From an uncultured Gammaproteobacteria bacterium (GTDB taxonomy: Bacteria; Patescibacteriota; Microgenomatia; Levybacterales; UBA12049), in assembly GCA_964512695.1 (NCBI GenBank), contig CAZEJU010000005.1:5668-69667 (forward strand): a stretch of 64,000 nucleotides of DNA, given 5' to 3'. A program made the position numbers and the translations under genes. Shown piece by piece: positions 27,001 to 61,875 of the stretch (the stretch's first letter is position 1; the number at the start of each line of letters is the position of its first letter). Below the pieces are notes generated by a model, which worked only from the letters and a program-made list of their open reading frames with translations, made no database searches and was not told where the DNA came from.

Positions 27001-27504
27001 TTATCTTGAAGCAGATATTGTAGTTGAGCCTTCAGCTCTGCAAGCCGTTACAGTTACTATATTATTTGCATCAACAACAATCCCGTATCCTGTTGAGGTC
27101 GAACTCGACGACAGGCTTGGGTCGACAGGAATTGTTTTTAAGTATTTAACGAGCGGAGTCGCAAGATTTGTGCAGCTTGAAGCTGTGACACTGCATCCTC
27201 CTGTTGAAATTGCACATCCCGATGAAGCTGATCCAAGCTGGACTTGTGACATTCCGGTAGAAAGCCCCGACGGAAGAGAACCACCGTTATCTACTATATA
27301 AGCATGGACCGCAGTAAGGATCGTATTTACATCTGAGGTGCGTCGTGCGTTTCTCGCGTCTTGAAATCTTTGCGCTGGATTAAGTGCTACGAATACTACT
27401 ACGGCCAAAGTTGCTATAATAACTATTACGATTAAAAGTTCAATAAGAGTAAAACCTTCTTTGGAATTTTGGAGTTTGAATTTAAAATTTAAATATTTCT
27501 TCAT
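27001..27504 (-). CDS. Type IV pilin (class III signal peptide, probable major pilin)
   Basis: MKKYLNFKFKLQNSKEG|FTLIELLIVIVIIATLAVV is a prepilin cleavage/methylation motif (G-F-T-L-I-E). Start moved to the internal Met so the leader is 17 aa. The C-terminal region is Cys-containing. Confidence 0.75.
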   Translation of the reverse strand: MKKYLNFKFKLQNSKEGFTLIELLIVIVIIATLAVVVFVALNPAQRFQDARNARRTSDVNTILTAVHAYIVDNGGSLPSGLSTGMSQVQLGSASSGCAISTGGCSVTASSCTNLATPLVKYLKTIPVDPSLSSSSTSTGYGIVVDANNIVTVTACRAEGSTTISASR

Positions 27505-27560
27505 AGGCAGAATATTATATAAAGTTATCGTATCGTGTAGTGCATAAAAAATCAAGTAAT

Positions 27561-27944
27561 TTATATCTCTTTCCAACTTGAGATCGTCAAATAAGATCCT
27601 CCTCTGTTTACTACAGCCTGGACTGTTCTTCTGTAATCTGTCGCGGTAGTTGTGGTAGTAACTGTGTAATTAGATCCTGCTTGAGACACGGTTATGGTAC
27701 ATATTCCTTCAGGTCGAGATATTGTTCCACCTGCATAAGACGCGCTATTTCTAAGCTTTAAAAGCGCGTCTTCCATACACCCTTCTATAAAAACCAAAGC
27801 ACCTTCGCCTTTCGTAATCGCTAGTGAAACTTGTCCTTCACCTACACCAAGCTGAGCAACGGTTATCATAACACCCGAAATGACGACAGTTAATATGAGG
27901 ATAATTGATATCGCTACATATCCTTGTTCAGATTTTTTTTTCAT
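27561..27944 (-). CDS. PilX-like minor pilin (hydrophobic N-terminus without the canonical GFxxxE)
   Basis: 127 aa starting MKKKSEQGYVAISIILILTVVISGVMITVA, lying inside the prepilin gene cluster. Confidence 0.45.
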   Translation of the reverse strand: MKKKSEQGYVAISIILILTVVISGVMITVAQLGVGEGQVSLAITKGEGALVFIEGCMEDALLKLRNSASYAGGTISRPEGICTITVSQAGSNYTVTTTTTATDYRRTVQAVVNRGGSYLTISSWKEI

Positions 27945-27945
27945 A

Positions 27946-28494
27946 TTAATTACCCCTTAATTCAGCACTACTCTCAATAACCACTGAATCCTGATACTCC
28001 TGACGTGCAGCCACAAAAGAGGCTGCTACTGTCATTACAAACTGTATGTGTTTCGATTTATTGTCAACTGAGCTATAGTTTGTAAATGTTAGAAGTGTAA
28101 TAACAGTATTACTAGAGTTAATAGCTACTGCACTACCGACACCTTGTTTAATTCTTATATTCCCTCCTGATAAATCAATTACAGTCGGATTCGTCCCAGG
28201 CGTTGAAGTTGCAAGGGAAAGAGATGTTGCAGAAACAGAATTTATACCCGTAGCATTCCTAATCTCATATTTGATTCGTTCAGTAATATACCGTGCGTTC
28301 GCATTTACCTCTTGAGCAGTCGCACTTTTTACGCCTAATTCAACACTGTTCCAGGCAAAAGGAACAAGTGCAGATAAAATAATTGTTATTAAAGCAATGT
28401 ACAGAATAAGCTCGATTAAGGTAAAACCACGTTCATGTGAACTGAATGTGATAAAACCATTATTATTTTGTGAAATTATATGTAGACTTCGCAT
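27946..28494 (-). CDS. Prepilin-type minor pilin (PilW/pseudopilin-like)
   Basis: ERGFTLIELILYIALITIILSAL N-terminal methylation motif. Confidence 0.7.
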   Translation of the reverse strand: MRSLHIISQNNNGFITFSSHERGFTLIELILYIALITIILSALVPFAWNSVELGVKSATAQEVNANARYITERIKYEIRNATGINSVSATSLSLATSTPGTNPTVIDLSGGNIRIKQGVGSAVAINSSNTVITLLTFTNYSSVDNKSKHIQFVMTVAASFVAARQEYQDSVVIESSAELRGN

Positions 28495-28495
28495 A

Positions 28496-30004
28496 TTATT
28501 GTGGCTTAAGTATTAAAAACTCGGACGAACTATTTGTATCAGCGATAAATATACGATCATTGCTCGTATCATATACAACTTCTTTTGGAAAATTTACAAT
28601 ATTTAGTGATCCCAATGCCGGCAAACCTGGTAATGAATCTAGATTACTGCCATTGATAACTAAAAAATCATTTGTTGCCGAATTAGTTCCTAGAAAAAGT
28701 AGATTATTCCCAAAACTTATAGAGTTTACATCTGCTCCAATTTCAACAGTTGATTTAAGCAAAAGACTTGTTGGTGTGGAAACATCAATTGAGTAAAGTT
28801 CTGGCGCTCCGCTGGAAACTCTTCCCACCAAAATTCTATTCCCTCCGGCATTATAAATCGCAATCGCGTTTGCAGGATTGTTTCCGCTATCAAGATTAAA
28901 AATAGCATCACGCGCAAGCGTTGTAAGATTTATTACTTGTACTTCAGCAGCATTATCATCAGATGTAACAAACGCATAACTTCCTACAATAACTACCCCA
29001 GTAGGAGTTCCCGTTATTCCAGAACCAGTCCCGGTAATTGTGGGAGAAGCCGGATTTGAAATATTAAACTTAATAAACTCATTACCTCCATTCCTTACCA
29101 TATATAAAAAGTTTCCGGAAATCGCCAGAGCAATAGCATCAGCGTTATCATTACCACTGTTAACGACCGTTAAATTTACGGAATTCAACGTTGCAGTTGA
29201 AAGGCTTGTTGGAGAGCTAATATCTATAATCTGCAACTCCTGAGAGTTATTAGTTGATGCAATATATGCGTAATTACCATTAATAACAATATCATTTACG
29301 TCACCTCCAAGTTCGCGTTGGCAGTTTACACACATAGAGGGAACAGTAGTATTTGATACATCAATTGAAAAAAATTCAGTACCAACTGAACTAGCACGAC
29401 CTAAAAAAATATAGTTACCAGATCTTACAAGAGATATTCCATTAGCAGCATTTGCACCGCTATTTGCTAGTGTTAAATCGAAGCTCGAATCAAGAGATGG
29501 ACTTGCCCAATTTCCCACAATTGCCTTTCTCCAATCCGATAAATAACTTGAGAGGACAACAGAATTAGATCTTGTAGATGTAAAGTTCCAAGAAACTGTT
29601 GATGTAATTTTCTTAGTCAGAGGGTCAACAGTACCCCCACTTGTCACAATATTTCCGTTTCCATCCCTTGAAACATCAGATACTGTTATGACTCTCGTAT
29701 ACTTACTACTTAGAATATTATTGCTTCCTGAAAAACTCCAGACATTTCCCACTCTGGAAATACCTGTCCCAGGACTGTTTACCAAACTCGCAAAATTCTG
29801 GTTTTTAATTGAACGGGTTGCCTCAATACCTTCAGATGCATACTGTGTAGCTATGGTTTGCTCTTCTCCAAGCCTATTTGAGTCTAATCCTTGCAGCATA
29901 ACCATGACTGCACCAGATGCTAATATCATAAACAAAGCAGTAGCTATAATAACTTCAATAACCGAAAATCCCTTTTGGTGACACTCTTCAAAATATAATT
30001 TCAT
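28496..30004 (-). CDS. Large prepilin-headed protein with about 6 beta-propeller-type (LVIVD-like) repeats; candidate pilus tip adhesin (PilV/PilY1-like function)
   Basis: QKGFSVIEVIIATALFMILASGAVMV prepilin N-terminus, then repeated ~45-aa units (..ASTNNSQELQIIDIS.., ..RASSVGTEFFSIDVS.., ..RVSSGAPELYSIDVS.., ..TNSATNDFLVINGS.., ..DTNSSSEFLILKP). Confidence 0.6.
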   Translation of the reverse strand: MKLYFEECHQKGFSVIEVIIATALFMILASGAVMVMLQGLDSNRLGEEQTIATQYASEGIEATRSIKNQNFASLVNSPGTGISRVGNVWSFSGSNNILSSKYTRVITVSDVSRDGNGNIVTSGGTVDPLTKKITSTVSWNFTSTRSNSVVLSSYLSDWRKAIVGNWASPSLDSSFDLTLANSGANAANGISLVRSGNYIFLGRASSVGTEFFSIDVSNTTVPSMCVNCQRELGGDVNDIVINGNYAYIASTNNSQELQIIDISSPTSLSTATLNSVNLTVVNSGNDNADAIALAISGNFLYMVRNGGNEFIKFNISNPASPTITGTGSGITGTPTGVVIVGSYAFVTSDDNAAEVQVINLTTLARDAIFNLDSGNNPANAIAIYNAGGNRILVGRVSSGAPELYSIDVSTPTSLLLKSTVEIGADVNSISFGNNLLFLGTNSATNDFLVINGSNLDSLPGLPALGSLNIVNFPKEVVYDTSNDRIFIADTNSSSEFLILKPQ

Positions 30005-30438
30005 CTGCTAACTACTCCTTGAGAATTAATCACAAATTGTTTTGAGGTATCGTTACTAGTAATAGAGTATGTGCCTGTAGTGCTGGGTAAACCAGTAACT
30101 TTTGTAAAAACAACTTCAGTAAAGCCTGCAATAGATATATTGGAGTTGACCCTGAATGTTTCATCAAAAGCTGCATTGCGTGTAGCATACGAATTTCCTT
30201 GAAAAAGAGTTAAGGTATTTGATCCAAAACGCACTCCCCAATTACCGTTTTGCCTACCCATCATCGCATAGATTTGAGCTTTTCTCGCTTCTCCTAAGAA
30301 TTGATCCTGTACATTGGCTACAGCGTTTTGCGTCAAGAAACGGGAAAAGAAAACTACTGAGAATGTGCCAATAGAAATTATTATCGCGATAACTAAGAGT
30401 AATTCAATAATGGTAAAACCAGCAGCTTTTCTGTACAT
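30001..30438 (-). CDS. Prepilin-type minor pilin (GspH/FimT-like)
   Basis: MYRKAAGFTIIELLLVIAIIISIG motif. Start moved to the internal Met to remove the 68-nt overlap with pilC. Confidence 0.65.
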   Translation of the reverse strand: MYRKAAGFTIIELLLVIAIIISIGTFSVVFFSRFLTQNAVANVQDQFLGEARKAQIYAMMGRQNGNWGVRFGSNTLTLFQGNSYATRNAAFDETFRVNSNISIAGFTEVVFTKVTGLPSTTGTYSITSNDTSKQFVINSQGVVSR

Positions 30439-30448
30439 ATCATGACAC

Positions 30449-31534
30449 TTAGCGCTTGATACTACTACTAAACTGATAAATCGGTCCAATAATGGAAACT
30501 GCAATAAAGGCAACAATCAACCCTACTATTATTAATATTACTGGCTCAAGAATTGTTGAAAGATTCTTGGAAGTACTATCAACTTCATCTTCAAAATAAT
30601 CCCCTAAGTAACTGAATGTCTCGTCAAGTTTACCCGTTTTTTCTCCAACGCCCAGCATCCTGACTGCAATAAGCGGAAAAAAATTAAATTTTGAATGATC
30701 AAAAATGCTCTCAAGTGTTTTGCCTCTCTCTACCCCTTTTTGAATCCTGTCTATATATTCCCTGAAGATCATATTTTGCGTGGATTCTTTTTGAATTTCC
30801 AGTGCGCGTGTAATTGGGATTGAACTTTGAAGCAAAGTACCCATATTCCTGCAGATTGACGCAAGCTGTACATTTTGTATAAACGAACCAATTACAGGAA
30901 GGCTTAGCAAAAATCTATGCCATAAAGGTTTTGCAAATTTTTGGGAGATAGTTACTTTAAACGCGATCACACAAATACCTAAAAATGCGAAGATATAAAT
31001 CCCATAATTGTTCATTACGTTTGCAAACCAAAGAAGAATTCTTGTTGTTATCGGAAGCTCTACATCCAGGGAATTAAATAGGTCAACTAACTTTGGTAAA
31101 ACAAAAATACTCAAACCAATTGCGGCTGTAAACGCGACTAAAAGCACAATAGTTGGATAGAGTAATGCGCTCTTAATTTTTTGCGAGAACTCATGGGTCT
31201 TTCTTAAATGTGTTGCAAGGTAATCCAGATTCTTCTCAAGGTTTCCTGATTGTTCCCCGACTTTTATAAGCTGCACATAAAATGGATCAAAAAATTTTGG
31301 ATAAAAAGATAATGCCTTATCAAACTCTTGCCCATTTACAACTTCTTCGCGGATTTTATGCAAAACCTTTCTGAAATATACATTATTGTTCTGCCTAGAA
31401 ACTATTTCGATTGATTCAGCCAGGGGTATTCCACTTTTAAGCATAATGGAAAGGTGCTTCGTAAACGTCAGTCTTTCAACCGCACTGACACCTCCAAAGA
31501 TTACTATGTTATCAGACATCTTAGGCAGTTTCAT
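30449..31534 (-). CDS. pilC: Type IV pilus inner-membrane platform protein PilC (GspF family)
   Basis: Two T2SS_F repeats, 3 TM helices and the typical length of 361 aa. Adjacent to pilB. Confidence 0.85.
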   Translation of the reverse strand: MKLPKMSDNIVIFGGVSAVERLTFTKHLSIMLKSGIPLAESIEIVSRQNNNVYFRKVLHKIREEVVNGQEFDKALSFYPKFFDPFYVQLIKVGEQSGNLEKNLDYLATHLRKTHEFSQKIKSALLYPTIVLLVAFTAAIGLSIFVLPKLVDLFNSLDVELPITTRILLWFANVMNNYGIYIFAFLGICVIAFKVTISQKFAKPLWHRFLLSLPVIGSFIQNVQLASICRNMGTLLQSSIPITRALEIQKESTQNMIFREYIDRIQKGVERGKTLESIFDHSKFNFFPLIAVRMLGVGEKTGKLDETFSYLGDYFEDEVDSTSKNLSTILEPVILIIVGLIVAFIAVSIIGPIYQFSSSIKR

Positions 31535-31605: not shown

Positions 31606-33300
31606 CTACTCGCGCGTTGCACGTAATACTTCTTCAATAGTTGTTATTCCTTCAGCTATTTTTTCCAGACCGTCTTCGGCCATTTTTCTCATTCCTTCTT
31701 TTATCGCCATCTGTTCAATTGTGTCAGAATCTGCTTTTTGGACAATTAAAGCTCTGATTGCCTCATTCATTTCTAGAACTTCAAAGATACCTATTCTTCC
31801 CATGTACCCACTCATGTGGCAAACAGAACATCCTTTTCCTTTATATATCCTTATTGATGATTTACTTCCGTAAATTTTTCTGATCAAGTCACGGCTAAAA
31901 TCTTTTAGAAGTTCCGACAGCTCGATGTCTAGAGAATATTTACACTTCTCACAAATTTTACGAACCAAACGTTGCGCGATTACAACATTTATTGTCGATG
32001 CGACTAAAAACGGTTCTACTCCCATGTCAATAAACCTTGGAACCGCTGTCGCCGCGTCATTTGTATGCAGTGTAGAAAGGACAATATGTCCTGTTAAAGC
32101 AGAATTAATTGCAATGTCCGCAGTCTCATCATCTCTGATTTCACCAATATATATGATATTCGGGTCTTGCCTCAAAATTGAGCGCAATCCTTCCGCAAAT
32201 GTTAAATTAGTTTTTGCATTAACTTGAATCTGGTTTATACCCTCCACGTCATACTCAACGGGATCTTCAATTGTCGCGATATTTTTGTCAGGTGTGTTTA
32301 AAATTTTAAGAATTGCATACATAGTAGTTGTTTTACCGCTTCCAGTTGGCCCCGTGGACAATATCATACCGTACGGTTTATTCATGGCGTTAACCACTTT
32401 CTCATGGTCTTCTTTGCTCATTCCCAGATTAGATAAACTAAACTGCCTGAAATGTGAAGCTAAAAGCCTTAAAACAGCTTTCTCCCCATGAACTACCGGC
32501 ACCATTGAGACACGGATATCCAAATCTTCTTCAGGAAGTTGAACCTGTATCTTTCCATCCTGTGCTGAGGCATGCTCATCAGTTTGTAATGAAGCTAAAA
32601 CCTTAATCCTTAGAACCACCTGCTTATATACCTCCAAAGATAAGGTCAAAACTTCGTGCATAATCCCGTCAATCCTAAACCTTACCTGCGCGTTATCTTT
32701 TGCAGGCTCTATATGAATGTCAGACGCGTTATTCCTATATGCGTATTCGATAAGTAAATCCACTATTTTTATAATCGGTGCTTCATAGATTTTACCGTCT
32801 CCTAAAATATCAACTTGTTCAGCTAAAAGCGCATCGAATTTTTTTTGCAGATCTTTTTTATAGATTTTTAGCGATTGCTCAATATCACGCCGTATAGCAA
32901 AATATGGAATTACTTTTTTATTCACTTTGCGTTGGATAAATTCAAGCAATTTGAGGTTCGAGGTGTTCGCAAGTGCAATTTTAACATTATCTGGATTGTC
33001 TTGAAAAACGATAGCACTAAACTCTTTCGCGAGTTGCTCGGGTATTATATACGAGGCGCTATCAGGAATAGAAACAGTCTGAAGATTAATATACGGAACA
33101 TTAATCATATCTGCAATGATTCTGCCAAGCCCAACAGAATCTATTAAATCATGGTCGATAAGTGCTTCAGCAAACGATACATTTTCCTTCTCACATTCTG
33201 TAAATGTTTTGATCAGTTCTTTTTCTTCAATAACTTTCAGTTCTTTTAAAGAGTTCAATAAATCCTTGGCGAATGGTTCCATACTTTTTAATCGTATCAA
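31606..33300 (-). CDS. pilB: Type IV pilus assembly ATPase PilB (GspE family)
   Basis: N-terminal GSPII_E_N-like region, Walker A LSTGPTGSGKTTT, Asp box and His box, and a tetracysteine motif CEKCK...CSVCH. Confidence 0.9.
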   Translation of the reverse strand: MIRLKSMEPFAKDLLNSLKELKVIEEKELIKTFTECEKENVSFAEALIDHDLIDSVGLGRIIADMINVPYINLQTVSIPDSASYIIPEQLAKEFSAIVFQDNPDNVKIALANTSNLKLLEFIQRKVNKKVIPYFAIRRDIEQSLKIYKKDLQKKFDALLAEQVDILGDGKIYEAPIIKIVDLLIEYAYRNNASDIHIEPAKDNAQVRFRIDGIMHEVLTLSLEVYKQVVLRIKVLASLQTDEHASAQDGKIQVQLPEEDLDIRVSMVPVVHGEKAVLRLLASHFRQFSLSNLGMSKEDHEKVVNAMNKPYGMILSTGPTGSGKTTTMYAILKILNTPDKNIATIEDPVEYDVEGINQIQVNAKTNLTFAEGLRSILRQDPNIIYIGEIRDDETADIAINSALTGHIVLSTLHTNDAATAVPRFIDMGVEPFLVASTINVVIAQRLVRKICEKCKYSLDIELSELLKDFSRDLIRKIYGSKSSIRIYKGKGCSVCHMSGYMGRIGIFEVLEMNEAIRALIVQKADSDTIEQMAIKEGMRKMAEDGLEKIAEGITTIEEVLRATRE

Positions 33301-33407
33301 AACATAAATCCTCAGACAAGAAAGACATAGTAAGTGTCTCTAGATCAATATTCATTTTTGCGGTGCTATAAGAAAGTTTGCAGCTGAATTTTTCTAGTAA
33401 AGGAGAA

Positions 33408-33716
33408 TTAAGTACCAATCACGGTATTAATCTTTGTAATTACATCATTGATTGATAGGTCTGATTTTATTATATAATCACGCGCTCCTAATTTCATTCC
33501 ACGATCAATATCTTCTTTTTGCCCTAAATTTGAAGCAATAATAACAGGAATCCTTTTCCAGTCCGGATTATTTTGAATTTCTTCTAAAACCGTAAACCCG
33601 TCTTTTTTAGGCATCATAAGATCCAGTAACATAACATCTGGGACAAATGTTTTGAGCGTATCAATTGCCTCCTGGCCGTCTGCTACTAATGTAACATCAA
33701 ACCCTTCCTTTGCCAT
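33408..33716 (-). CDS. CheY-like receiver domain protein lacking a canonical AUG-initiated N-terminus (see findings)
   Basis: Receiver motifs are present (VMLLDLMMPKKDG; conserved K in ASNLG). In-frame codons upstream of the ATG encode PIIKNITAEDDKFLANAYRVK, i.e. the missing beta1-DD segment, with no ATG/GTG/TTG before the upstream stop. Confidence 0.6.
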   Translation of the reverse strand: MAKEGFDVTLVADGQEAIDTLKTFVPDVMLLDLMMPKKDGFTVLEEIQNNPDWKRIPVIIASNLGQKEDIDRGMKLGARDYIIKSDLSINDVITKINTVIGT

Positions 33717-33927
33717 TTTTACGCGATATGCATTAGCGAGGAATTTATCATCTTCAGCTGTTATATTTTTTATAATTGGCTAAAAGCTTTATCGGATGAT
33801 GCAATTTTTACTTCCTAAACCTGATGTACTTCTTATGGAAAATATAGACATCGGTTTTCTATCAGCTTTTTTCGCATTTCCATAAATTTATTCTTTCAAG
33901 TTTTACAGTCCTAACACTCTTAAAGTG

Positions 33928-34308
33928 TTATAAGTAGCTTTTAACCTCTTCTGCTATTGCTGACAAACTTGCATCTGATTTGACCAGAAAATCTATGGCT
34001 CCCATTTCTTTCGCCATTTTTTTATCTTCTTCTTGCGATAAATTCGAAGTGATAATTACTTTTGTGTTTATCCCTTTTTCACGAATAACTGATAGTACCT
34101 CCCAACCATCAATACCAGGCATCATGATATCTAAAAGGACTAAGGAATAAGTCCCTGATTGCAATTCCTTTAATCCTTCCTCACCGCTGAAGACCACGTG
34201 AGCAGTAATGCCCCCTTTTTGAAGCTTTATCTCCATCGCTTTTCCCATTGCTTTTTCGTCCTCAATAATAAGAACTTTTTTTGTATTGTTACTATTTACA
34301 CTTTCCAA
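33928..34308 (-). CDS. Single-domain response regulator (CheY-like receiver)
   Basis: KKVLIIEDEKAMGKA..., LVLLDIMMPGIDGWEV, conserved K (SNLSQ..K). 126 aa. Confidence 0.8.
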   Translation of the reverse strand: MESVNSNNTKKVLIIEDEKAMGKAMEIKLQKGGITAHVVFSGEEGLKELQSGTYSLVLLDIMMPGIDGWEVLSVIREKGINTKVIITSNLSQEEDKKMAKEMGAIDFLVKSDASLSAIAEEVKSYL

Positions 34309-34359
34309 ACTGTAATATTCACCCTCTTTCTTTTTATATTTTCTCTTCTGTTTGAGAAT

Positions 34360-34782
34360 TTAATAGAGCTGCACTTCTTTATCTTGCAAATCAAAAATCC
34401 CATTTAATTTTTCAACTATTTCTTCTAGGGAATTTTCTGATTTAACAAGATAATAAGACGGCTGGTCGGTTACTACATGAGTTAACCTTTCGTCATTTGT
34501 ATCAAAATTCGTAAGAATAACCACTGAAGCATATTTACCCCATTTATTCTCACGTAACTTATGTAACATAGTCAGACCATCCATTTTGGGCATTTCAATA
34601 TCCAGTAAAATTGCGTTCGGATGATTTTTTAATGCAGCATCCAGCCCAGTTGCTCCGTCCCCAGCTTCTAAAACTAAAAACCCTAAGCTTTCTAGTTTCA
34701 CGGCAATTGCTTGCCTAAGAGAGGCATCATCTTCAATGATAAGAATGGACTTACTCGTTTCCAAATTATTTTGATTTGCCAT
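34360..34782 (-). CDS. Single-domain response regulator (CheY-like receiver)
   Basis: KSILIIEDDASLRQA..., ILLDIEMPKMDGLTML. 140 aa. Confidence 0.8.
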   Translation of the reverse strand: MANQNNLETSKSILIIEDDASLRQAIAVKLESLGFLVLEAGDGATGLDAALKNHPNAILLDIEMPKMDGLTMLHKLRENKWGKYASVVILTNFDTNDERLTHVVTDQPSYYLVKSENSLEEIVEKLNGIFDLQDKEVQLY

Positions 34783-35170
34783 ATAAGCATTCTTTTAGAG
34801 CCTCAACTATTTGATCTAAGCGAAAATTCGCCTTAACAAAGTACTTATTCACCCCCAGCTGCATATACATTCTCACTTTTTCTTCGCTTGCCGTATTACT
34901 TACAACAAAAATTGGAATATGTTTCCATTTTGAATCAGAACTTTTGATTTTTGTAACCAAATCTAATCCGTCATCTTTACCTAACAAATAGTGGTCTAAC
35001 CAAATTCCATCCACCTGACTAAGTTCTTCCAAATAAGACATGGCTTGTTGTACACTTCTTGCGGTAGCCACATTAATATTGTTATTCTCAAGCTTTATCT
35101 TAATCACTTCTAACAATGGAATTTCATCCTCAATAACTAAAATCGTTTTTGTCTCCATAAAGATAGTCAC
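34766..35170 (-). CDS. Single-domain response regulator (CheY-like receiver)
   Basis: KTILVIEDEIPLLEV..., IWLDHYLLGKDDGLDLV. 134 aa, overlapping the next receiver gene by 17 nt. Confidence 0.75.
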   Translation of the reverse strand: MTIFMETKTILVIEDEIPLLEVIKIKLENNNINVATARSVQQAMSYLEELSQVDGIWLDHYLLGKDDGLDLVTKIKSSDSKWKHIPIFVVSNTASEEKVRMYMQLGVNKYFVKANFRLDQIVEALKECLYGKSK

Positions 35171-35179
35171 CTCCTTCCT

Positions 35180-37381
35180 TCATTTTAATCTTCTATTACC
35201 GTCTTTCTTCACCATTCCAGAAAGAGGCAATAACACAAAAAACGTTGTACCTTTATTTTCTTCCGAATAAAACCATATTTTACCTCGGCAATGATCTATC
35301 AATGATTTTACAAGATACAATCCTAACCCAGTTCCATCAGTATTTTGTACTCTGACATTATCTGCCCTAAAAAGTTTTTCGAAAACTTTTCCTTGTTGCA
35401 TGGTGGTTATTCCGATACCATTATCCTCAACTTCTATAAGAAGACTATTCTCTTCTGCTTTTACCCCACCAACTGCTTCTTCCTGCTGGATAGTTTTTAA
35501 AGAGATTTTTATTTCTCCGTTTTCATTGGTGTATTTGATTGAATTTGTAAGCAAGTTCTGGAGTATGATTGTAGTTAAGTTAGGATCAAGCATGATTTGG
35601 GGCATATCATCTTTCTCGAGGACTACTCTTAATTTTTTCTCATCTATCATAGGCTTTGACTCATCCAGGATAGAACGGGTTAATCTCACAATATCAACCA
35701 TTTCAGGTTCAATCATGTAATTGCCTGTTTCAATTCTCGACACATTCAGTAGTGCATTTACCAGCTTTGACAGGCGCTGACTTCCTTGATAGGCTTCCTG
35801 GATAAACTTTTTTTGCTCATCTGTTACATTACCTGCATCTCCAGATAAAAGAAGTTCACAATACCAATTGATAGTTGAGAGAGGCGTACGCAGCTGATGA
35901 GATGCTAAAGAGATAAATTCTGACTTAGCCCTGTCTATTTGCTTTTCTCTCGTAACATCATGCAGAACAGTAACCGTGCCCAATAGTTTATTCCTCAGTA
36001 GAATGGGAGTAATCGTAACTAATACCGCAATCTTTTCTCCATTTTTTTTGGTATAGATCACTGCACTGCTGATCTTCTCTTTACGGGATAGCACTTTATT
36101 TATAATTCTTTCCGCAGGAGGTATGACTCTTCCATTTTCATCTTCCGCCTTAATAGCTTCAATTAATTTTCTCTCTACCAGATCCTGTGGGGTATATCCT
36201 AATAACTCTTCTATTGCTTGATTTATCCTCACAATTTGTCCCTTCTCATCTGTGACGATCAGTCCGTCCCCAATACTTGATATAAGAACTTCATCATATA
36301 TGCGTTCTTCCTCAAGATGGGTTATATCCTCTTCTGTCCCTATAAAGCCAATTATCCTATCTTCCTTTTTTATGGGTGAAATATGGGTAATCACGGTGTA
36401 ATATTCACCATTTTTTCGTCTATTCTGTAGCTCCCCATCAAATCCTTCACCTGCTCGTATTGTTTGCCATAGTTTTTGGTACAAGTCTTGAGTCATAATA
36501 CCACCCCATAAGCGAGGCGTATTATTTTTCATCTCCTCAAAACTAAAACCTGTCATTTGCTGAGCTTTTTTATTTGCAAAAACAACAAACCCGTTTACAT
36601 CAGTTATCACAACGTGATTGCGGGAGTCTTGAATTGCTTGCAACATAATATTCTTCTCTGTTTGTTCATTATTAAAATCAGATTCTGTTAAAATAGTATC
36701 ATTTATTCTTGGATAGTGTTCCTCAAAACGCATGTTCTGAAAAGGAGTATTTCTGCGGGCTAGAAGCACATATGTCTCATCAATAAACCCCTGCGGACCA
36801 CAAATAAAGAAAAGATCCTCCGCAAAATTGATTCCTGATGGAAAAAGTTCATTTGATATTTTTCCAATATGGTTTACAAATACGATATTTTGCTGTGCAG
36901 TTATCCTGGAAAGCTCTTCTGAGAAAGCGCTTTTTTCAGAAGCTGAGTTAACATACATAAGTGTTAAATTTGGATTCATCTCTTCCTGGAGAGAGTTAAT
37001 AATTGAAAGAAATGGTGCAATCCCGACTCCGCCTGCGATCATAACTATATTTTGTTTTTGATTTTTAAGTGAATAGGAACTCCCAAATGGACCGAGTATT
37101 TTTACCCTACTTTGAAGTGGAAGTTCTAAAAGCGTTTTTATATATCCTGAATCTGAATTGCGAAAAAGAATAGAGCAGGATTTTTTATTCAAAGAACTGG
37201 AGATAATAGAGAAAGCTCTTCTCCCTCCTTTTAGATCCGGGTATAAAAGCTCGGACACAATTACCCAGACATATTGACCGGGAGAAAAACTAAAATCTTG
37301 TTCAAAGAAGAAGGTAATGACTGTCGTGTCTTTTGCAACTGTTTTCTTTTCCTGAATTGTCGCCCACATTTCATTACTCAT
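35180..37381 (-). CDS. Hybrid sensor histidine kinase: N-terminal ferredoxin-NADP-reductase-like FAD/NAD(P)-binding oxidoreductase module, then 2 PAS domains, HisKA and HATPase_c
   Basis: FNR-family motifs RRAFSIISS (RxYS FAD site), MIAGGVGIAPFLSII (GGxGxxP NAD site) and FFICGPQGF. Two PAS-like segments. H-box ASHQLRTPLSTI, N-box LLTNSIKYT, G1 VEDNGIGI, G2 GTGLGLYLVKSL. Confidence 0.8.
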   Translation of the reverse strand: MSNEMWATIQEKKTVAKDTTVITFFFEQDFSFSPGQYVWVIVSELLYPDLKGGRRAFSIISSSLNKKSCSILFRNSDSGYIKTLLELPLQSRVKILGPFGSSYSLKNQKQNIVMIAGGVGIAPFLSIINSLQEEMNPNLTLMYVNSASEKSAFSEELSRITAQQNIVFVNHIGKISNELFPSGINFAEDLFFICGPQGFIDETYVLLARRNTPFQNMRFEEHYPRINDTILTESDFNNEQTEKNIMLQAIQDSRNHVVITDVNGFVVFANKKAQQMTGFSFEEMKNNTPRLWGGIMTQDLYQKLWQTIRAGEGFDGELQNRRKNGEYYTVITHISPIKKEDRIIGFIGTEEDITHLEEERIYDEVLISSIGDGLIVTDEKGQIVRINQAIEELLGYTPQDLVERKLIEAIKAEDENGRVIPPAERIINKVLSRKEKISSAVIYTKKNGEKIAVLVTITPILLRNKLLGTVTVLHDVTREKQIDRAKSEFISLASHQLRTPLSTINWYCELLLSGDAGNVTDEQKKFIQEAYQGSQRLSKLVNALLNVSRIETGNYMIEPEMVDIVRLTRSILDESKPMIDEKKLRVVLEKDDMPQIMLDPNLTTIILQNLLTNSIKYTNENGEIKISLKTIQQEEAVGGVKAEENSLLIEVEDNGIGITTMQQGKVFEKLFRADNVRVQNTDGTGLGLYLVKSLIDHCRGKIWFYSEENKGTTFFVLLPLSGMVKKDGNRRLK

Positions 37382-37436: not shown

Positions 37437-37967
37437 TTACTTTGTTACATGATTTTCTGATACTTCATCGAGTGTTTCCATACCAATAAAAAATTCTACT
37501 TCTCCTTTAACATCAAGTATGGGAGAAATCCTGAGTAGAACAGGATAAAGCCGTCCATTTTTGTGTTTGTTGGTTACTTTTACCATGATAGCTTTCTTTT
37601 GCACTGCAATTTGATCCCACATCTCTTGATAGAATTCTCTTGTCATTTGGTTACCCCACAAGGCTGGAGTCTTCCCGAGTATCTCATGTGAAGAGTAACC
37701 GGTCGCAGCAACTACCTGTTCGTTTACATATAAAATAACACCATTTTTATCAGTTATAATAACTTGTCGTTCAATATCTTTTGAAATTGAGTTTATAAGT
37801 CCACAGCGCTCGCATTTTATATCAAATAACTGGAGCATGATCTGTTCTATGACAAGCAATTTGTTACATTTTGTACATCTATGTTTCTTCAGTAACTGTG
37901 TCTTAGCAACTTCAAGAGGAAATGAAACTGGTAAAAGACCTTGAGTACTACCTCGGTTATTGTTCAT
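37437..37967 (-). CDS. Zinc-ribbon (CxxC-x17-CxxC) + PAS domain protein
   Basis: CTKCNKLLV...CERCG followed by a PAS fold (ITDKNGVILYVNEQVVAATGYSSHEILGK...). 176 aa, immediately upstream of and co-directional with the sensor kinase. Confidence 0.55.
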   Translation of the reverse strand: MNNNRGSTQGLLPVSFPLEVAKTQLLKKHRCTKCNKLLVIEQIMLQLFDIKCERCGLINSISKDIERQVIITDKNGVILYVNEQVVAATGYSSHEILGKTPALWGNQMTREFYQEMWDQIAVQKKAIMVKVTNKHKNGRLYPVLLRISPILDVKGEVEFFIGMETLDEVSENHVTK

Positions 37968-38145: not shown

Positions 38146-40896
38146 TCAACCCAGATCACTATTGAGATGACATTTTTTATATTTCTTCCCTGACCCACAC
38201 CAGCAGGGATCATTCCTGCCTGGTTTTTTAGGTTTAGAGCTAGATACGTTTGCAGCATTACCTCCTGCAGTACCTGAATGTGCGAGATTAGTTCTATTTT
38301 GCGTACCTGGTTTTTTCTGAGAATCTCCACTAACTTCACTCACGGGAGTATTCGTATGTATGTGCTGATGAAACTCCGGCGAAACCTGGACTTGTACTTT
38401 AAATATTCTGTGAACAATCTCGTCATCGACAGAGAACATTAATTGCTCAAACATACGAAAAGCTTCATTTTTATATTCTACCAATGGATCTTTCTGAGCA
38501 TAACCGCGTAATCCTATTCCTTGCCTCAAATCATCAATTGCATCGAGATGATCCATCCATAAACGATCAATTGATGCTAAAAATACATATCTTTCAATCT
38601 GTTTTGTTGTTTCTTTCCCTACTTGTTTCTCTTTCTTATCGTAAAGATCTTTTGCTAAATTTTGTAAAAATTCAATCTTCTCTTCTGGCATATGTACTTG
38701 CTGTAACTGTTTCATAAGTTGTTTTTGCGAAGATTCATCAAATGGTATAATGCTTTGAAAACTACTTACTATTCCTTCGTTTCCTGAGTCCACACTATCA
38801 GCTGACTCTGATGAGGCAAGAGAAATATGCACAATTGTTTCAATAGCTTTATCCACTCTCTGTAATATTTCTTTTTTCGCAAACTCGTCATCTGAATCAG
38901 TTTTTAATAAAATATCTCGTCGTAATGCATAAATAACTTCACGTTGTTTATTTAATACATCATCATATTCCACCAAATGCTTTCTAATATCGAAATTAAA
39001 TCCTTCTACTTTAACTTGTGCATGCTCTATGGAGCGTGAAACAAGTGGATGCTCGAGAGGAACATCCTCAGGCATATTAAATCTCGTCATTAATCCTGAA
39101 ATTCTATCTCCTCCGAAAAGCCGCATTATATCGTCATCTAATGATACATAAAAACGCGATTTTCCCGGGTCTCCCTGTCTTCCAGATCGTCCACGAAGTT
39201 GGTTATCAATACGTCGAGATTCATGTCGCTCCGTACCAATAACATATAATCCGCCTAACTCTAAGACTTCTTTATGCCCCTTTTCCCACTGTTTCCACTC
39301 TGTCGTTCCAAGCATGGGACGACCATCAGTATGTTTGGGACTCTCTCCACCAAGAATAATATCAACTCCCCGACCTGCCATGTTTGTTGCTACAGTCACT
39401 GCGCCTTTTTTCCCAGCTTGGGCAATAATTTGTGCTTCCCGAGCATGGTTTTTAGCGTTAAGTACTTCATGCTTTATACCTCTACGGCGCAATAGCTGTG
39501 ATAAGATTTCATTTTTTTCTATAGACGTTGTACCCACGAGAACTGGTTGACCTTCAGCATGCGCTTTTTCAATGTCATCAACAACAGCAGTTAATTTCGC
39601 ACGGGTGGTTTTATAGACAGCATCTGACTGATCCAAACGAGCCAAAGGATTATTTGTAGGAATAACAACAACGTCCAATTTATAGATCTTCTGGAATTCT
39701 TCAGCTTCTGTCACTGCTGTACCAGTCATACCAGCAAGTTTTTCATACATACGGAAATAATTCTGCAGTGATACTGTAGCAAGAGTTTTAGACTCTCTCT
39801 GAATAGGGACATTTTCTTTTGCTTCAATTGCTTGATGAATACCTTCTGATAATCTTCGTCCTTCCATAAGTCGTCCAGTAAATTCATCCACAAGGATAAC
39901 TTGATTATCACGTACAATGTATTCTTTCTCTTTATGAAACAATGTCCGGGCTTTTAAGGCTGCTTCTAAATGATAAACTGTATCAAAATCTTTTTCATAG
40001 ATATCCGCTATTCCGTACATTTTTTCAATTTTTGCGATACCATGATCTGTTAAATGCGCAGTTCGAAGTTTTTCATCAATTTTATAGTCGATTTCTGGAG
40101 TCAAACGCTGTACTACTTTTGCATATTCATAATATTTTTCGGATGGTGCTTCATCTGGAGCAGAAATAATATGCGGTGTTCTCGCTTCATCTATTAATAC
40201 CGAATCCACTTCATCAACAACTGCATAATAGTAATCTCGCTGAACTATATCTTTACTATCTTGTGCCATATTATCGCGGAGATAGTCAAAACCAAATTCA
40301 GAATTAATGCCATACGTTATATCTGTTTGATATGCTTCTTTGCGTGTGATAGGCCGGAGATGTGATAATCGATAGTCAATAGCGTTTTCATCCGTGTACT
40401 CTGGATCAAAAAGAAAAGAAGCATCATTTATAATTGAGGACACAGATATACCCAGAAGGTGAAATACTTGTCCCATCCAGCCCGCATCACGACGGGCAAG
40501 ATAATCGTTTACAGTCACTAGATGGACATTCTTACCTGTAAGACTATGAAGGTATAATGCAAAAATCGCTGTGAGTGTTTTTCCTTCTCCTGTTTTCTGT
40601 TCTGCAATCTTTCCACGTGATAAGGCAATTGCAGCCATTAGCTGTACATCATATGCGTGTATACTTAGTTTCCTTTTTGTGGCTTCACGTACGAGTGCAA
40701 AAGCCTCTGGTAGTAAACTATCAAGGGATTCCCCAGAAGTAAACCGTTCTTTAAATTCCGCAGTTTTTTTGGGAAAATCTTTCTCCTTAAGAGATGAAAG
40801 TGTATCTTCTAACGCATTAATTTGGTCAACAATAGAGCGAAGTCTTTTTACTTCTTTTTCATTCGAGTCAAATAGACTACTCAGGAATCGTACCAT
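38146..40896 (-). CDS. secA: Preprotein translocase ATPase SecA
   Basis: DEAD-like motor motifs, 916 aa, and a C-terminal zinc-binding tail CWCGSGKKYKKCH. Confidence 0.95.
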   Translation of the reverse strand: MVRFLSSLFDSNEKEVKRLRSIVDQINALEDTLSSLKEKDFPKKTAEFKERFTSGESLDSLLPEAFALVREATKRKLSIHAYDVQLMAAIALSRGKIAEQKTGEGKTLTAIFALYLHSLTGKNVHLVTVNDYLARRDAGWMGQVFHLLGISVSSIINDASFLFDPEYTDENAIDYRLSHLRPITRKEAYQTDITYGINSEFGFDYLRDNMAQDSKDIVQRDYYYAVVDEVDSVLIDEARTPHIISAPDEAPSEKYYEYAKVVQRLTPEIDYKIDEKLRTAHLTDHGIAKIEKMYGIADIYEKDFDTVYHLEAALKARTLFHKEKEYIVRDNQVILVDEFTGRLMEGRRLSEGIHQAIEAKENVPIQRESKTLATVSLQNYFRMYEKLAGMTGTAVTEAEEFQKIYKLDVVVIPTNNPLARLDQSDAVYKTTRAKLTAVVDDIEKAHAEGQPVLVGTTSIEKNEILSQLLRRRGIKHEVLNAKNHAREAQIIAQAGKKGAVTVATNMAGRGVDIILGGESPKHTDGRPMLGTTEWKQWEKGHKEVLELGGLYVIGTERHESRRIDNQLRGRSGRQGDPGKSRFYVSLDDDIMRLFGGDRISGLMTRFNMPEDVPLEHPLVSRSIEHAQVKVEGFNFDIRKHLVEYDDVLNKQREVIYALRRDILLKTDSDDEFAKKEILQRVDKAIETIVHISLASSESADSVDSGNEGIVSSFQSIIPFDESSQKQLMKQLQQVHMPEEKIEFLQNLAKDLYDKKEKQVGKETTKQIERYVFLASIDRLWMDHLDAIDDLRQGIGLRGYAQKDPLVEYKNEAFRMFEQLMFSVDDEIVHRIFKVQVQVSPEFHQHIHTNTPVSEVSGDSQKKPGTQNRTNLAHSGTAGGNAANVSSSKPKKPGRNDPCWCGSGKKYKKCHLNSDLG

Positions 40897-50597: not shown

Positions 50598-52442
50598 TTA
50601 CTTAGGCACACACTGAAGATTCACGAGTTGGAGAGCTTTGCTTGAACTTGATACAGAAGGCTGCCTACATTCATACGCACTGCCTACAGGACCTGGAGGA
50701 ACATTCGTAGGAACAATTGGTTGTTGGTCTTCTCCGTCATGGATACCTATGGAAAGTGTCTGCTCATTTTGGTCTTCTGTAATCTCAAAAGGATCTGATA
50801 AAGCAGCCACTTTACCGCCTATCCGGACAATAATTCTATAATGACCAGGTACAATAATTAAATAACAATATCCATCACTACTTGTCGTTGCTGTAGGGGA
50901 ATACATCCTTTTTGGAAATATAGTGAACTCGGCACCCGATACACCTTTTTCACCTGCGTCGGCTTGTCCATTTTTATTAGCATCAGAAAAAACGAAACAT
51001 CGAAACCGAACTACAAGCCGACGTGGACGTTGGGTAGGTGTAGGAGGAATCTGGGTTACCGTCGCTGTAGGCTGAGGGGTAACTGTTAGCGTCGCTGAAG
51101 GCCTTGGAGTCAATGTCGGAGTGCTACCAGGCGGAGGCGTAGTTGTAGCTGTCGGTACAGGTGTGTTAGTAACAGTCACACCTCCACAAGCAGGATCATC
51201 TAATATTTTTTTCATATTTAAACGCTTTCCGCCTAAAGAAGTATCTATAGGATCTCCATTACGCACAAGACAATCTAGAACCTGATCTGGTGTTAATGAT
51301 TTCTGTGAGAGTAATAAGGCCACAGCCCCCGCTACATGCGGAGATGCCATAGATGTTCCTTGCAGGCTTTTATATCCTCCTCCCTTATACGTAGACACTA
51401 TAGTAGTACCTGGAGCCCCGATCTCTACTTTAGATCCATAGTTAGAAAATGATGCTCTCCTGTCATTCTGATCTGTAGCACCTACAGTAATAACTCCATT
51501 ACATGAAGCAGGTGTAAATGCACCAGCATCTGTCCCATCATTCCCCGCAGCTACAACAACTACTGTCCCCTGGCTACGAGCATAATTTACAGCATTTTGA
51601 TAAACGGACGCACACGGACCCCGTCCTCCCAAACTCATGTTTATTACTTTTGCACCATTTTTTGCAGCCCACTCAATACCTCTACTAATACCCGATGAAG
51701 GACCAGAACCATTATCTCCCAATACTTGAACAGCCATTAACCTAACATCCCAATTAATACCGCTTACCCCAGTAGAATTATTTGTCAAAGCACCAACTGT
51801 ACCTGAGACATGTGTCCCATGTCCTTGTCTGTCAATAGGATCTCCGTCAGCAGATGTGAAATCCGGACCTTTTATAATGTCCCTTGGTAAATCTGGATGA
51901 TTATAATCTACTCCAGTATCTAATATTGCCGCTATAATAGCTTTTCCACCAGTAGTTTTATCCCAAGCTTCCTCTAAACCAATTTTTTTATAATGCCACT
52001 GTTGTGCATAATATTGATCATTCGGCAACTTCGTAGCCTTAACTATTACATCTACCTCGACAGATTTAATTTCTTCATAGTCTATTATTATATTTCCAAC
52101 TTTCTCTAAATCTGTTCCTTTTTTAAATTCTAAAATATAGAAATTTTTTAATTGTGCGTCATCGCCATTGAATAATTTTTTATGTCCAATAACTCCTATA
52201 TTATTAAATTTTTGTTTTATTACTTCTGGACTCTTACCTTCTACAAATTCTACAAGGAGTCTGTCAGAGACATACTCTACTCCCTCAGCGATAAAAAAAG
52301 TTTTTCTGGGTACTTTCTTTCCTGTCTGTGCCAATGAAGTTACTAATAACACTAAAATACTAAAAGCTACCAATATGAATATAATTATCCACTTTTTATT
52401 TAAAGTCTGCAGTTTAGACATATCTATTTCATTGTTACACAT
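50598..52442 (-). CDS. Subtilisin-like serine protease (peptidase S8) with an N-terminal anchor/signal, an I9 propeptide and a C-terminal PT-linker plus extension domain
   Basis: Catalytic triad motifs AILDTGVDYNHPDL (D), HGTHVSGTVGA (H) and GTSMASPHVAGAVAL (S). PT-rich linker TNTPVPTATTTPPPGSTPTLTPRPS. Confidence 0.85.
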   Translation of the reverse strand: MCNNEIDMSKLQTLNKKWIIIFILVAFSILVLLVTSLAQTGKKVPRKTFFIAEGVEYVSDRLLVEFVEGKSPEVIKQKFNNIGVIGHKKLFNGDDAQLKNFYILEFKKGTDLEKVGNIIIDYEEIKSVEVDVIVKATKLPNDQYYAQQWHYKKIGLEEAWDKTTGGKAIIAAILDTGVDYNHPDLPRDIIKGPDFTSADGDPIDRQGHGTHVSGTVGALTNNSTGVSGINWDVRLMAVQVLGDNGSGPSSGISRGIEWAAKNGAKVINMSLGGRGPCASVYQNAVNYARSQGTVVVVAAGNDGTDAGAFTPASCNGVITVGATDQNDRRASFSNYGSKVEIGAPGTTIVSTYKGGGYKSLQGTSMASPHVAGAVALLLSQKSLTPDQVLDCLVRNGDPIDTSLGGKRLNMKKILDDPACGGVTVTNTPVPTATTTPPPGSTPTLTPRPSATLTVTPQPTATVTQIPPTPTQRPRRLVVRFRCFVFSDANKNGQADAGEKGVSGAEFTIFPKRMYSPTATTSSDGYCYLIIVPGHYRIIVRIGGKVAALSDPFEITEDQNEQTLSIGIHDGEDQQPIVPTNVPPGPVGSAYECRQPSVSSSSKALQLVNLQCVPK

Positions 52443-52465
52443 GTATAAATGTTTTGTAAAGTTTG

Positions 52466-53944
52466 CTAGTTACGTGGTGTACAAATGAGATTAATCATCT
52501 GCAAAGCTTTCTTATTCGCCGTTCCTGGAGGCAAGATGCATTGATAACCAGGGTCACCCGGTAGCCCAACTACCGGTGTAAGCGTAGGAGTTGCTAAAGG
52601 AGTCGGAGTAGGAGTTGCTCTACTGACAGTACATGCGGAATCACTAACAAGTCTTTCTACGTTTAACCGTTTTCCGATTGGCTTATCTGTTGAAATAGAA
52701 TCTGCATTTCTTACTATGCAATCTTCTACTTGCTGTGGAGTAAGATACGGATTAAGAGAAAGTAATAATGCTGCTGCTCCTGTTACATGGGGAGCAGCCA
52801 TGGATGTTCCTTCCCACTCAAAATATTTTAACCCACCTAATGATCGTGATCTTGTCGAATAAGTCGAGTATATTTTTACTCCCGGTGCTGCTACGTCTAC
52901 GACAGAACCGAAATTAGAGAACGAAGCACGTTCATCAGATTGTGTACTCGCACCTACCGTTATGACATTATTACAATTAGCAGGCACCTGACCCGCTGCA
53001 TCTTCACCATCATTTCCTGCAGATACCACCACTATAACATTCTTTCGAATAGCATAATCAATCGCATCCTGAAAGAGACTTAAGCATCGTTCTTTGTACC
53101 CCAAACTTAAATTAAGTACTCGTGCGCCATTATCCACTGCATAATTCATTCCACGCGCCACTTCAAGCTTACTACCACTACCATTCCAGTAAAGGACCTG
53201 AACTGCCATCAAACGAATATTCCAATTCATTCCTGTTACTCCTTTACCATTATTTGCTACAGCACCTATGACACCTGCTAAGTGAGTACCATGACCGTTC
53301 TCGTCCATAGAGTCTCTATCCCCACTATTCCAGCTCGTATCTTCACCGTTAATTATGTCACTCGGTAGGTCTTCATGAGTATAATCTATTCCTGTATCCA
53401 GTACAGCAACTATGATATTCTTTGATCCAGTAGCTATATCCCATGCATCTTCCATTCCTATCTTTGACATATTCCATAAACGAGATCCATAAGAGGGATC
53501 GTTGGGAGATATATCTATTTTAATAACTGCATCGCCTTCTATAGTTTCTATCTCTTCCATTTTTTCAAGCTGCTTCCCAGCTTGTTCTAAAGTAACTCCT
53601 TTGGCTAAAAATAGCGCATAATAATTCTTCATAGGACCATCTATATCTTTATATACCCTCTCCTGTTTCTCGACTCCAGCATCAAGAAGCTTTTGAAGAA
53701 CACTTTTCTTTTTCGCAGTTTCCATGATATCGTCTGGACTATAACCTTCTTTAAAACGAACTAGTAGCCTATCAGGGATATATTTTGTACCCTGCTCAAG
53801 TTTCAAAAGCTTTTTATGGGAATTTTGATTTTTAGTATCAGAAGAAACAATCGTAGATACATAAATAACAAAACAAAAAATAAGAATTAAAAAAATAAAA
53901 AAGATTAACCGTTTTGATTGTAATAACTGCAATATTTGTTCCAT
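52466..53944 (-). CDS. Subtilisin-like serine protease (peptidase S8), tandem paralogue of the 50598..52442 gene
   Basis: AVLDTGIDYTHEDL, HGTHLAGVIGA, GTSMAAPHVTGAAAL. The C-terminal motif is shared with the paralogue (KALQ.(I/V)NL.C.P). Confidence 0.85.
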   Translation of the reverse strand: MEQILQLLQSKRLIFFIFLILIFCFVIYVSTIVSSDTKNQNSHKKLLKLEQGTKYIPDRLLVRFKEGYSPDDIMETAKKKSVLQKLLDAGVEKQERVYKDIDGPMKNYYALFLAKGVTLEQAGKQLEKMEEIETIEGDAVIKIDISPNDPSYGSRLWNMSKIGMEDAWDIATGSKNIIVAVLDTGIDYTHEDLPSDIINGEDTSWNSGDRDSMDENGHGTHLAGVIGAVANNGKGVTGMNWNIRLMAVQVLYWNGSGSKLEVARGMNYAVDNGARVLNLSLGYKERCLSLFQDAIDYAIRKNVIVVVSAGNDGEDAAGQVPANCNNVITVGASTQSDERASFSNFGSVVDVAAPGVKIYSTYSTRSRSLGGLKYFEWEGTSMAAPHVTGAAALLLSLNPYLTPQQVEDCIVRNADSISTDKPIGKRLNVERLVSDSACTVSRATPTPTPLATPTLTPVVGLPGDPGYQCILPPGTANKKALQMINLICTPRN

Positions 53945-53972
53945 GATATACCCATCAGCTTATTGCTTTCAA

Positions 53973-61860: not shown

Positions 61861-61875
61861 GAACAATCATGAAAT

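Follow-up and report, generated by a model that had tools for sequence, protein, structure and literature searches.

Why do four receiver-only response regulator genes lie in a row between a single sensor histidine kinase (HK) gene and pilB, the gene of the type IV pilus assembly ATPase? The question was raised by an earlier note on a 64,000-nucleotide stretch of contig CAZEJU010000005.1 (assembly GCA_964512695.1), here called the window. The arrangement was found as that note had described it: four consecutive receiver open reading frames (ORFs) of 102–140 aa lay on the minus strand between the sensor gene (35180..37381) and pilB (31606..33300). They were RR1 (34766..35170, 134-aa ORF), RR2 (34360..34782, 140 aa), RR3 (33928..34308, 126 aa, TTG start), and RR4 (33408..33776, including the canonical 102-aa ORF at 33408..33716). 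As judged from sequence comparison, the array is one copy each of four anciently diverged receiver families. Within a modular, pilus-linked set of receivers it is the most complete version seen, holding every type once. It is not peculiar to this genome: the arrangement, with a variable number of receivers, is widespread in Patescibacteria, and this array is its largest version seen. A branched circuit, in which one sensor would serve several receivers and the output-less receivers would act on the type IV pilus motor, is considered moderately probable.

All four ORFs were receivers. PF00072 was the sole Pfam family matched in each (57–78 bits; RR1 57.0, RR2 65.7, RR3 77.8, and RR4 70.6 bits, with a gathering cut-off of 30.2 bits), and none carried an output domain, in agreement with the earlier description. 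RR1–RR3 had an acidic pair E-D (E-D-D in RR2), the phospho-Asp, a Ser/Thr, and a Lys at the positions of CheY 12/13, 57, 87, and 109. These catalytic residues were kept in essentially all members of all four families, and the receivers look competent from their residues. The DD/D/K set attributed to every gene was thus present in RR1–RR3 and in an extended frame of RR4; it was incomplete in the 102-aa RR4, and the pair is E-D, not D-D.

The surroundings of the active site were atypical. The loop of RR1 was LD-H-Y-L-L-G, not LDxxMP; in its type generally (type A below) LD-H-Y/N-L-G replaced LDxxMP, with His at D+1 and Gly in the column of CheY Pro61 (D+4). The T+1 residue was Asn in all four window receivers and in 129 of 136 relatives, whereas Ala or Gly occupies T+1 in 74% of receivers generally (PMC12632262). 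At K+1, Ser or Ala, not Pro, was found in nearly all these Patescibacteria stand-alone receivers. The usual Ala/Gly at T+1 and Pro at K+1 were therefore missing, as was Pro at D+4 in RR1, and membership of the receiver family stands because these features are typical, not defining. None of the four scored above the cut-off of an NCBIfam model; their best matches were the receiver halves of PhoB, CseB, AdeR, and PleD, at 49–73 bits against cut-offs of 296–474. None of them could be assigned to a named receiver subfamily, the NCBIfam and PDB sequence matches all being generic.

RR1 and RR2 shared 17 nt (34766–34782), the overlap that had been reported before, and RR2 has its ATG within the 3' end of RR1, an arrangement suggestive of translational coupling. 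The same 17-nt overlap was found in two related loci, L083 and L084. The RR1 ORF opened at GTG 35170; ATG 35158 was preceded by AAGGAGG, and the database copy had 130 aa. The true start of RR1 is most likely ATG 35158, giving 130 aa. The deposited kinase had 729 aa and started 4 codons downstream of 37381. The mechanical ORF starts of RR1 and of the kinase probably overshoot (35158–35170 and 37369–37381).

The alignment and the inspection of the α4-β5-α5 faces that had been proposed in the note were carried out, and both pointed to divergence, as did a tree. The pairwise identity of RR1–RR4 was 24–34% (BLASTP), and BLASTN found no nucleotide similarity among the four genes apart from the common 17 nt. 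The six specificity positions of α1 (EILEIK, DARQIA, EKGKME, and DKANYR) differed in all four, and 6–11 of 34–35 residues of the α4-β5-α5 face were common. In a neighbor-joining (NJ) tree of 136 stand-alone Patescibacteria receivers, the window receivers fell in four separate deep clades, named A, B, C, and D. Clade hidden Markov models (HMMs) built without the window sequences assigned RR1 to A (185 bits; next best 73 or less), RR2 to B (150; next best 86), RR3 to C (156; next best 102), and the extended RR4 to D (167; next best C, 130). Assignment by the nearest window receiver was too noisy between C and D and was replaced by the tree clades and clade HMMs. The low identity, differing specificity residues, and separate clades favored functional divergence over gene dosage; the recent duplicates with identical specificity residues that, according to the note, would have spoken for dosage were clearly not found.

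RR4 had lost its ATG start codon. The 102-aa ORF, opening at ATG 33716, matched the receiver profile from position 20 only, so it lacks β1 and the acidic pair. The frame continued upstream as TAG-PIIKNITAEDDKFLANAYRVK-M, and the acidic pair was encoded there. No ATG, GTG, or TTG occurred between this TAG and ATG 33716; ATT (33776–33774) occupied the site of the ATG of a related locus (L040). A full-length RR4 of 122 codons would require a start at ATT 33776 or ATA 33773, and all five catalytic residues were present only in the frame extended from ATT 33776. When the 211 nt preceding ATG 33716 were compared by blastx, matches were confined to the last 54 nt and were to the N-termini of D-type receivers. 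Among the 119 other best database matches of RR4, one near-identical copy was also called as 102 aa; the remaining 118, of D type, were full length (115–140 aa, 58–70% identity). The E-D motif lay 7 residues from the start in 97 of these 118, which equals the offset from a start at ATT 33776. RR4 departed from its family at one of 46 positions conserved at 90% or more, and its β1 read NIT where the family has ILV.

An assembly artefact was considered as the cause and rejected, because two independent Logan assemblies, each from a different sequencing run, carried the identical TAG...ATT sequence. Over 1.2 kb the second Logan assembly had two differences, which were nonsynonymous substitutions within RR4 and too few for significance. 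The Shine-Dalgarno sequence could not settle the start, as the HK, PilC, and SecA genes were also without an obvious one. RR4 is, on these comparisons, an otherwise intact D-type receiver gene minus its ATG. The odds between a young pseudogene and weak translation from ATT are roughly even, with a slight lean to decay.

The distribution of the four types was investigated in 80 kinase-anchored loci from GTDB species genomes, with seven more found by exact protein look-up, and in 80 PilB-anchored metagenome loci, a sample without kinase selection in which 56 pilB genes were evaluable. The named genome records were nearly all Patescibacteria, with a few evidently wrong bin labels. Of the 41 type A genes, 38 came first after the kinase. 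Type B adjoined the kinase as the second gene (19), the first (15), or just upstream (8). Type C lay immediately before pilB in 12 of 21 members, and six of the nine best non-self matches of RR3 were receivers immediately upstream of pilB. In the PilB-anchored sample, type D immediately preceded pilB in 20 loci, and types C and B did so in 6 each.

The number of receivers varied. At least one followed the kinase in 62 kinase-anchored loci, at least two in 25, and at least three in 5; four were found only in this window. A stand-alone receiver lay immediately upstream of 33 of the 56 evaluable pilB genes, and in 24 of these 33 loci the receivers came directly after a member of the kinase family (18 single, 3 double, and 3 triple). 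With receivers written as REC, the commonest layout around related pilB genes was HK-REC(n)-pilB-pilC, where n was usually 1 and reached 4 only here. The closest relative with the full array, L083 (GCA_964435665.1), had a Zn-ribbon–PAS gene, FNR-HK, A, B (17-nt overlap), C, and PilB; its A-type protein was 79% identical to RR1. The complete genome CP174360.1 (L038) showed FNR-HK-A-B-C-PilB-PilC. Other combinations were HK-A-D-C-PilB (L088 and L094), HK-A-B-D-PilB (L101), and HK-B-C-PilB (L001). In a further locus (L085:10312–11136), a C-type receiver was followed by a 274-aa protein with a PilB-like MshEN N-domain and an unrelated C-terminus, not pilB; this pairing hints that the partner of the receiver is the N-domain of PilB.

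The sensor was a 733-aa protein with an FNR-like module, two PAS domains, HisKA (60.7 bits), and HATPase_c (88.7 bits) by Pfam. Its N, G1, F, and G2 boxes, at residues 609, 653, 667, and 683, were intact and invariant across the family. The FNR-like FAD/NAD(P)H module covered residues ~1–230 (36690–37381, minus strand), with NAD_binding_1 at 33.2 bits (cut-off 22) and FAD_binding_6 at 23.8 bits (cut-off 21.1). In the PDB, this N-terminus matched T4moF, benzoate dioxygenase, flavohaemoglobin, and PyrK reductases. The RxFS, GGxGxxP, and CGP positions were at least 90% conserved in 41 sensor homologues, and the retention of these cofactor motifs suggests that the input is redox state or NAD(P)H. 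The module occurred in many but not all relatives, in some as a separate ORF. One keyword search of the literature found no description of an FNR-like/PAS histidine kinase fusion.

A small protein encoded 55 nt upstream of the sensor gene (37437..37967, minus strand, 176 aa) had a Zn-ribbon with two CxxC motifs (Zn_ribbon_Com 21.2 bits, slightly below cut-off) and a PAS domain (51 bits), and is likely an accessory sensor component. A PAS-protein gene stood upstream of the kinase also in L001, L083, L085, and L086; in L002 a Zn-ribbon–PAS homologue was placed between a receiver and pilB. The module, which is found across Patescibacteria and is physically coupled to the pilus assembly genes pilB-pilC, consists of the receivers and a cytoplasmic FNR-like/PAS/HisKA sensor, with the small PAS protein added in the closest relatives.

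In the branched circuit that is favored here, the sensor would use its FNR-like and PAS modules to monitor the redox, flavin, or NAD(P)H state inside the cell and set the phosphorylation level of the receivers. Because they carry no output domain, the receivers would act through protein contact. The receiver type nearest pilB, which is C in this window and D in many relatives, would be the arm touching the PilB/PilC motor. Type A would be the primary partner of the sensor and would carry a second output or compete for phosphoryl groups. Pilus extension would thereby be gated by a branched circuit, in which the D copy of this genome, minus its ATG, would be in the course of being lost or made at a very low level. 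Phosphotransfer and the contact with PilB are inferred. The sink or branched circuit that the earlier note had offered remains plausible.

The role of type A was suggested by its conservation. RR1 orthologues were 55–79% identical across Patescibacteria, compared with 35–56% for the sensor homologues. A phosphate sink needs an interface with the kinase only, so a receiver more conserved than the sensor points to an additional conserved partner. Together with its place first after the sensor and its coupling to B in the closest relatives, this argues for a primary partner with its own conserved target rather than a mere sink. Covariation of the kinase DHp helix with the type of the first receiver was also examined; many positions were associated, but the signal was confounded by phylogeny, because the groups were different lineages, and was discarded. 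The DHp consensus was nearly identical whichever receiver type followed.

An alternative is that two modules lie side by side, the sensor with A and B being a general redox system with a non-pilus output, and C or D with pilB being served by another donor. Many relatives had separate blocks in the opposite order, namely REC-PilB-PilC-pilins, then 3–4 kb, then HK-A-B. Nine of the 33 pilB-proximal receivers had no kinase directly upstream, and 20 of the 32 kinase loci with at least 8 kb on both flanks had no nearby pilB. In the other 12, pilB lay within 10 kb of the kinase, and this proximity is far more than chance would give in genomes of ~1 Mb. The commonest layout was HK, one receiver (B, C, or D), and PilB, with nothing else to phosphorylate the receiver. 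No second kinase was found in the 64-kb window by a Pfam survey of nearly all window ORFs of at least 120 aa. Two separate modules are therefore considered unlikely.

The H-box of the sensor raised a different difficulty. It read SHQLRTPL (residues 494–501), with the phospho-His at His495, Gln496 at H+1, and Thr at H+4, so that the canonical H-(E/D)-x-x-(T/N) motif was kept at H+4 and not at H+1. Gln occupied H+1 in 24 of the 29 kinases retrieved with the PilB-anchored loci; among database homologues it did so in 116 of 119. The E372Q variant of CrdS was kinase-negative and phosphatase-positive in vitro, NtrB E140Q gave matching phenotypes, and E-to-A changes at H+1 in HK853 and two other kinases caused the same loss of kinase and not of phosphatase activity (PMC3510030). 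Either the H-Q family would use another catalytic arrangement, or it would be phosphatase-dominated with the receivers charged elsewhere. The earlier claim of four phospho-acceptors for one kinase was accordingly weakened on two sides: three of the acceptors have normal starts, and the Gln at H+1 makes one kinase feeding four acceptors uncertain.

The HisKA protein might thus be mainly a phosphatase or phosphoryl shuttle, with acetyl phosphate or another small-molecule donor charging the receivers and the sensor setting the levels of phosphorylated receiver by regulated dephosphorylation. The prevalence of Gln and the CrdS and NtrB variants are consistent with this. If ATP were not used, however, it would be difficult to account for the intact and invariant ATP-binding boxes (N, G1, F, and G2), and Asn at T+1, which is bulkier than Ala or Gly, could, to judge from PMC12632262, hinder the access of small molecules. 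The H+1 rule has also been checked in few HisKA proteins only. A mainly phosphatase role is regarded as distinctly unlikely.

A His-Asp-His-Asp phosphorelay with one receiver in the role of Spo0F would agree with several stand-alone receivers and no output-domain regulator. The Pfam survey found no Hpt or Spo0B-like protein in the cluster or elsewhere in the window, so the Hpt that stands between receivers in a multi-step relay (Spo0F/Spo0B) was missing, and none was annotated in the related loci with listed genes. A divergent small Hpt could be missed by such a survey. A phosphorelay is very improbable. That the four genes are recent tandem duplicates giving gene dosage is next to impossible, since only adjacency and similar size speak for it, against 24–34% identity without nucleotide similarity, differing specificity residues, and four clades with orthologues in other phyla-level lineages up to 60–79% identical.

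Several points count against the branched circuit nevertheless. The NJ tree had no bootstrap support, and the boundary between C and D was soft, as the two scores of RR4 indicate. The retrieval pattern of the kinase-anchored sample included SHQL, which biased that sample. The kinase module was not near pilB in the 20 full-flank loci, and its output may therefore not be pilus-specific. The sensor may not be the phosphodonor, because the E-to-Q changes in CrdS and NtrB abolish kinase activity and leave phosphatase activity. Everything beyond sequence and synteny is inference.

On the best reading, the cluster would work like PilG/PilH, PixG/PixH, or ColS-EmvR and belong to none of those families. 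In the Pil-Chp chemosensory system of Pseudomonas, a single sensor kinase serves several CheY-like receivers (PilG and PilH), and these regulate the extension of type IV pili, partly in opposition to each other (PMC11656802). In the Tax1 system of Synechocystis, PixG contacts PilB1/PilC; PATAN regulators also act there, and PixH is the antagonist (PMC12288463). The window cluster resembles both in combining a sensor kinase with several receivers that lack a DNA-binding output in pilus control. Pil-Chp and Tax1 differ in having a CheA-type kinase with a methyl-accepting chemotaxis protein (MCP), CheW, CheR, and CheB, and a PATAN domain is part of PixG, whereas the window cluster has a soluble FNR-like/PAS/HisKA sensor and no chemosensory genes in the window. 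Counterparts of the PilG/PilH partners, ChpA (CheA-type kinase with Hpt and P-domains), PilJ (MCP), and PilI (CheW), were not present, and no NCBIfam cut-off for PilG, PilH, or CheY was reached. The suggestion of PilG/PilH-like regulators in the note was therefore not borne out, as the sensor is of HisKA and not CheA type and the Pfam survey of the 64-kb window found no CheA, MCP, CheW, or Hpt.

The closest mechanistic precedent for an output-less receiver on PilB is provided by ColS/ColR with EmvR of Xanthomonas oryzae and by DrdR. EmvR represses the ATPase of PilB, to which it binds; it also interacts with the HisKA-type kinase ColS, and its action is downstream of this kinase (PMC11973254). 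DrdR of X. campestris acts on PilB and PilT (PMC13507683). EmvR and DrdR are orphan genes away from pilB, and ColS also has a DNA-binding partner; the window has three or four receivers in the pilus operon, none with an output domain, and its kinship with EmvR and DrdR was compared at the level of the receiver fold only.

Phosphate-sink pairs, of which CheY1/CheY2 of Sinorhizobium is one, resemble the array in that extra stand-alone receivers compete for the phosphoryl groups of one kinase. PilH is also a possible phosphate sink (PMC11656802). HK853-RR468 of Thermotoga maritima likewise combines a HisKA kinase with a stand-alone receiver, a similarity at family level only. RR468 (4ja2/3dge) was the solved structure nearest to RR1, with E of about 2e-8 to 7e-8. 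HK853 has a canonical HE H-box where the window sensor has HQ, and RR468 has Met-Pro at D+3/D+4, unlike the LD-H-Y-L-L-G loop of RR1.

Cultivated Patescibacteria are reported to require type IV pili for host attachment, twitching, and episymbiosis (PMC9894109, PMC11623550). The two-component genes of Patescibacteria number only about 5 (PMC7137472). In the literature, no description was found of the regulation of Patescibacteria type IV pili or of a pilus-linked two-component module there. Since so few two-component genes are kept, a conserved sensor with one to four receivers in the pilB operon is probably a main behavioral switch of the cell. The A–D receivers, the FNR-PAS sensor, and the Zn-ribbon–PAS protein are candidates for the pilus-extension decision of an ultra-small symbiont. 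The H-Q HisKA proteins are also a natural family in which the generality of the acidic H+1 rule for autophosphorylation can be probed.

A more far-reaching proposal is tentative and considered rather doubtful. It holds that a lineage-wide pilus circuit of Patescibacteria would combine a soluble flavin/NAD(P)H-sensing H-Q HisKA protein, predicted to be kinase-dead under current rules, with up to four receivers that have Asn at T+1 and no Pro at K+1. The phosphoryl chemistry would be non-canonical, either phosphatase-dominated or with another catalytic base. Through the docking of one receiver type on PilB, pilus extension would be tied to the redox or energy state of the symbiont. If true, this would be a previously undescribed circuit controlling the organelle with which these bacteria attach to host cells.

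The Zn-ribbon–PAS gene, the sensor, RR1–RR4, pilB, pilC, and the pilin genes formed one operon-like block on one strand. Five gaps (from the Zn-ribbon–PAS gene to RR3, and between PilB and PilC) ranged from the 17-nt overlap up to 71 nt. The gaps flanking RR4 were wider: 151 nt separated RR3 from the ATT codon, and 107–125 nt lay between RR4 and PilB. The spacer between RR3 and the RR4 homology (33777..33927, minus strand) was non-coding, with stops in all frames; it had no Rfam match, no gene remnant by blastx, and a fold z of -0.5. Sigma-70 and terminator scans of 33200–35400 gave nothing beyond shuffled expectation and no terminator-like site. The Pfam survey also found no receiver with an output domain in the window.

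PilB (T2SSE 436 bits) had an N-terminal MshEN-type domain (35.8 bits) and a probable start at ATG 33282, judged by start context. In L087, the same locus in a second sample (SRR11524805) and the one with the two RR4 substitutions, a 24-nt in-frame deletion near the N-terminus of PilB was observed relative to window positions 33205–33228. The PilC platform protein (30449..31534, minus strand) matched T2SSF at 199 bits. Four pilin or pseudopilin genes with the N-methylation motif and one unassigned ORF of 127 aa (27561–27944) followed on the minus strand (27001..30516; N_methyl and LVIVD matches). The downstream order of the pilus operon matched that of L001. One of the four, a 502-aa protein at 28496–30004 (minus strand), fused a prepilin N-methylation motif to an LVIVD-repeat β-propeller, had a counterpart in the same place in L001, and may be a pilus-tip adhesin. 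The SecA gene (38146–40896, minus strand) lay upstream of the Zn-ribbon–PAS gene.

A fifth receiver-only gene, an orphan of 121 aa, was observed at 15552–15917 (minus strand) between the genes of an RsmB/F-type rRNA methyltransferase and an SPFH/Band 7 protein. It fell outside all four clades (best clade score 80 bits). Surface-protein genes unrelated to the receiver cluster were observed at 50598–57353 (minus strand) and 59524–62601 (plus strand), encoding two subtilases, a 1126-aa protein without a Pfam match, a protein with a Baseplate_J-like domain, and a sortase.

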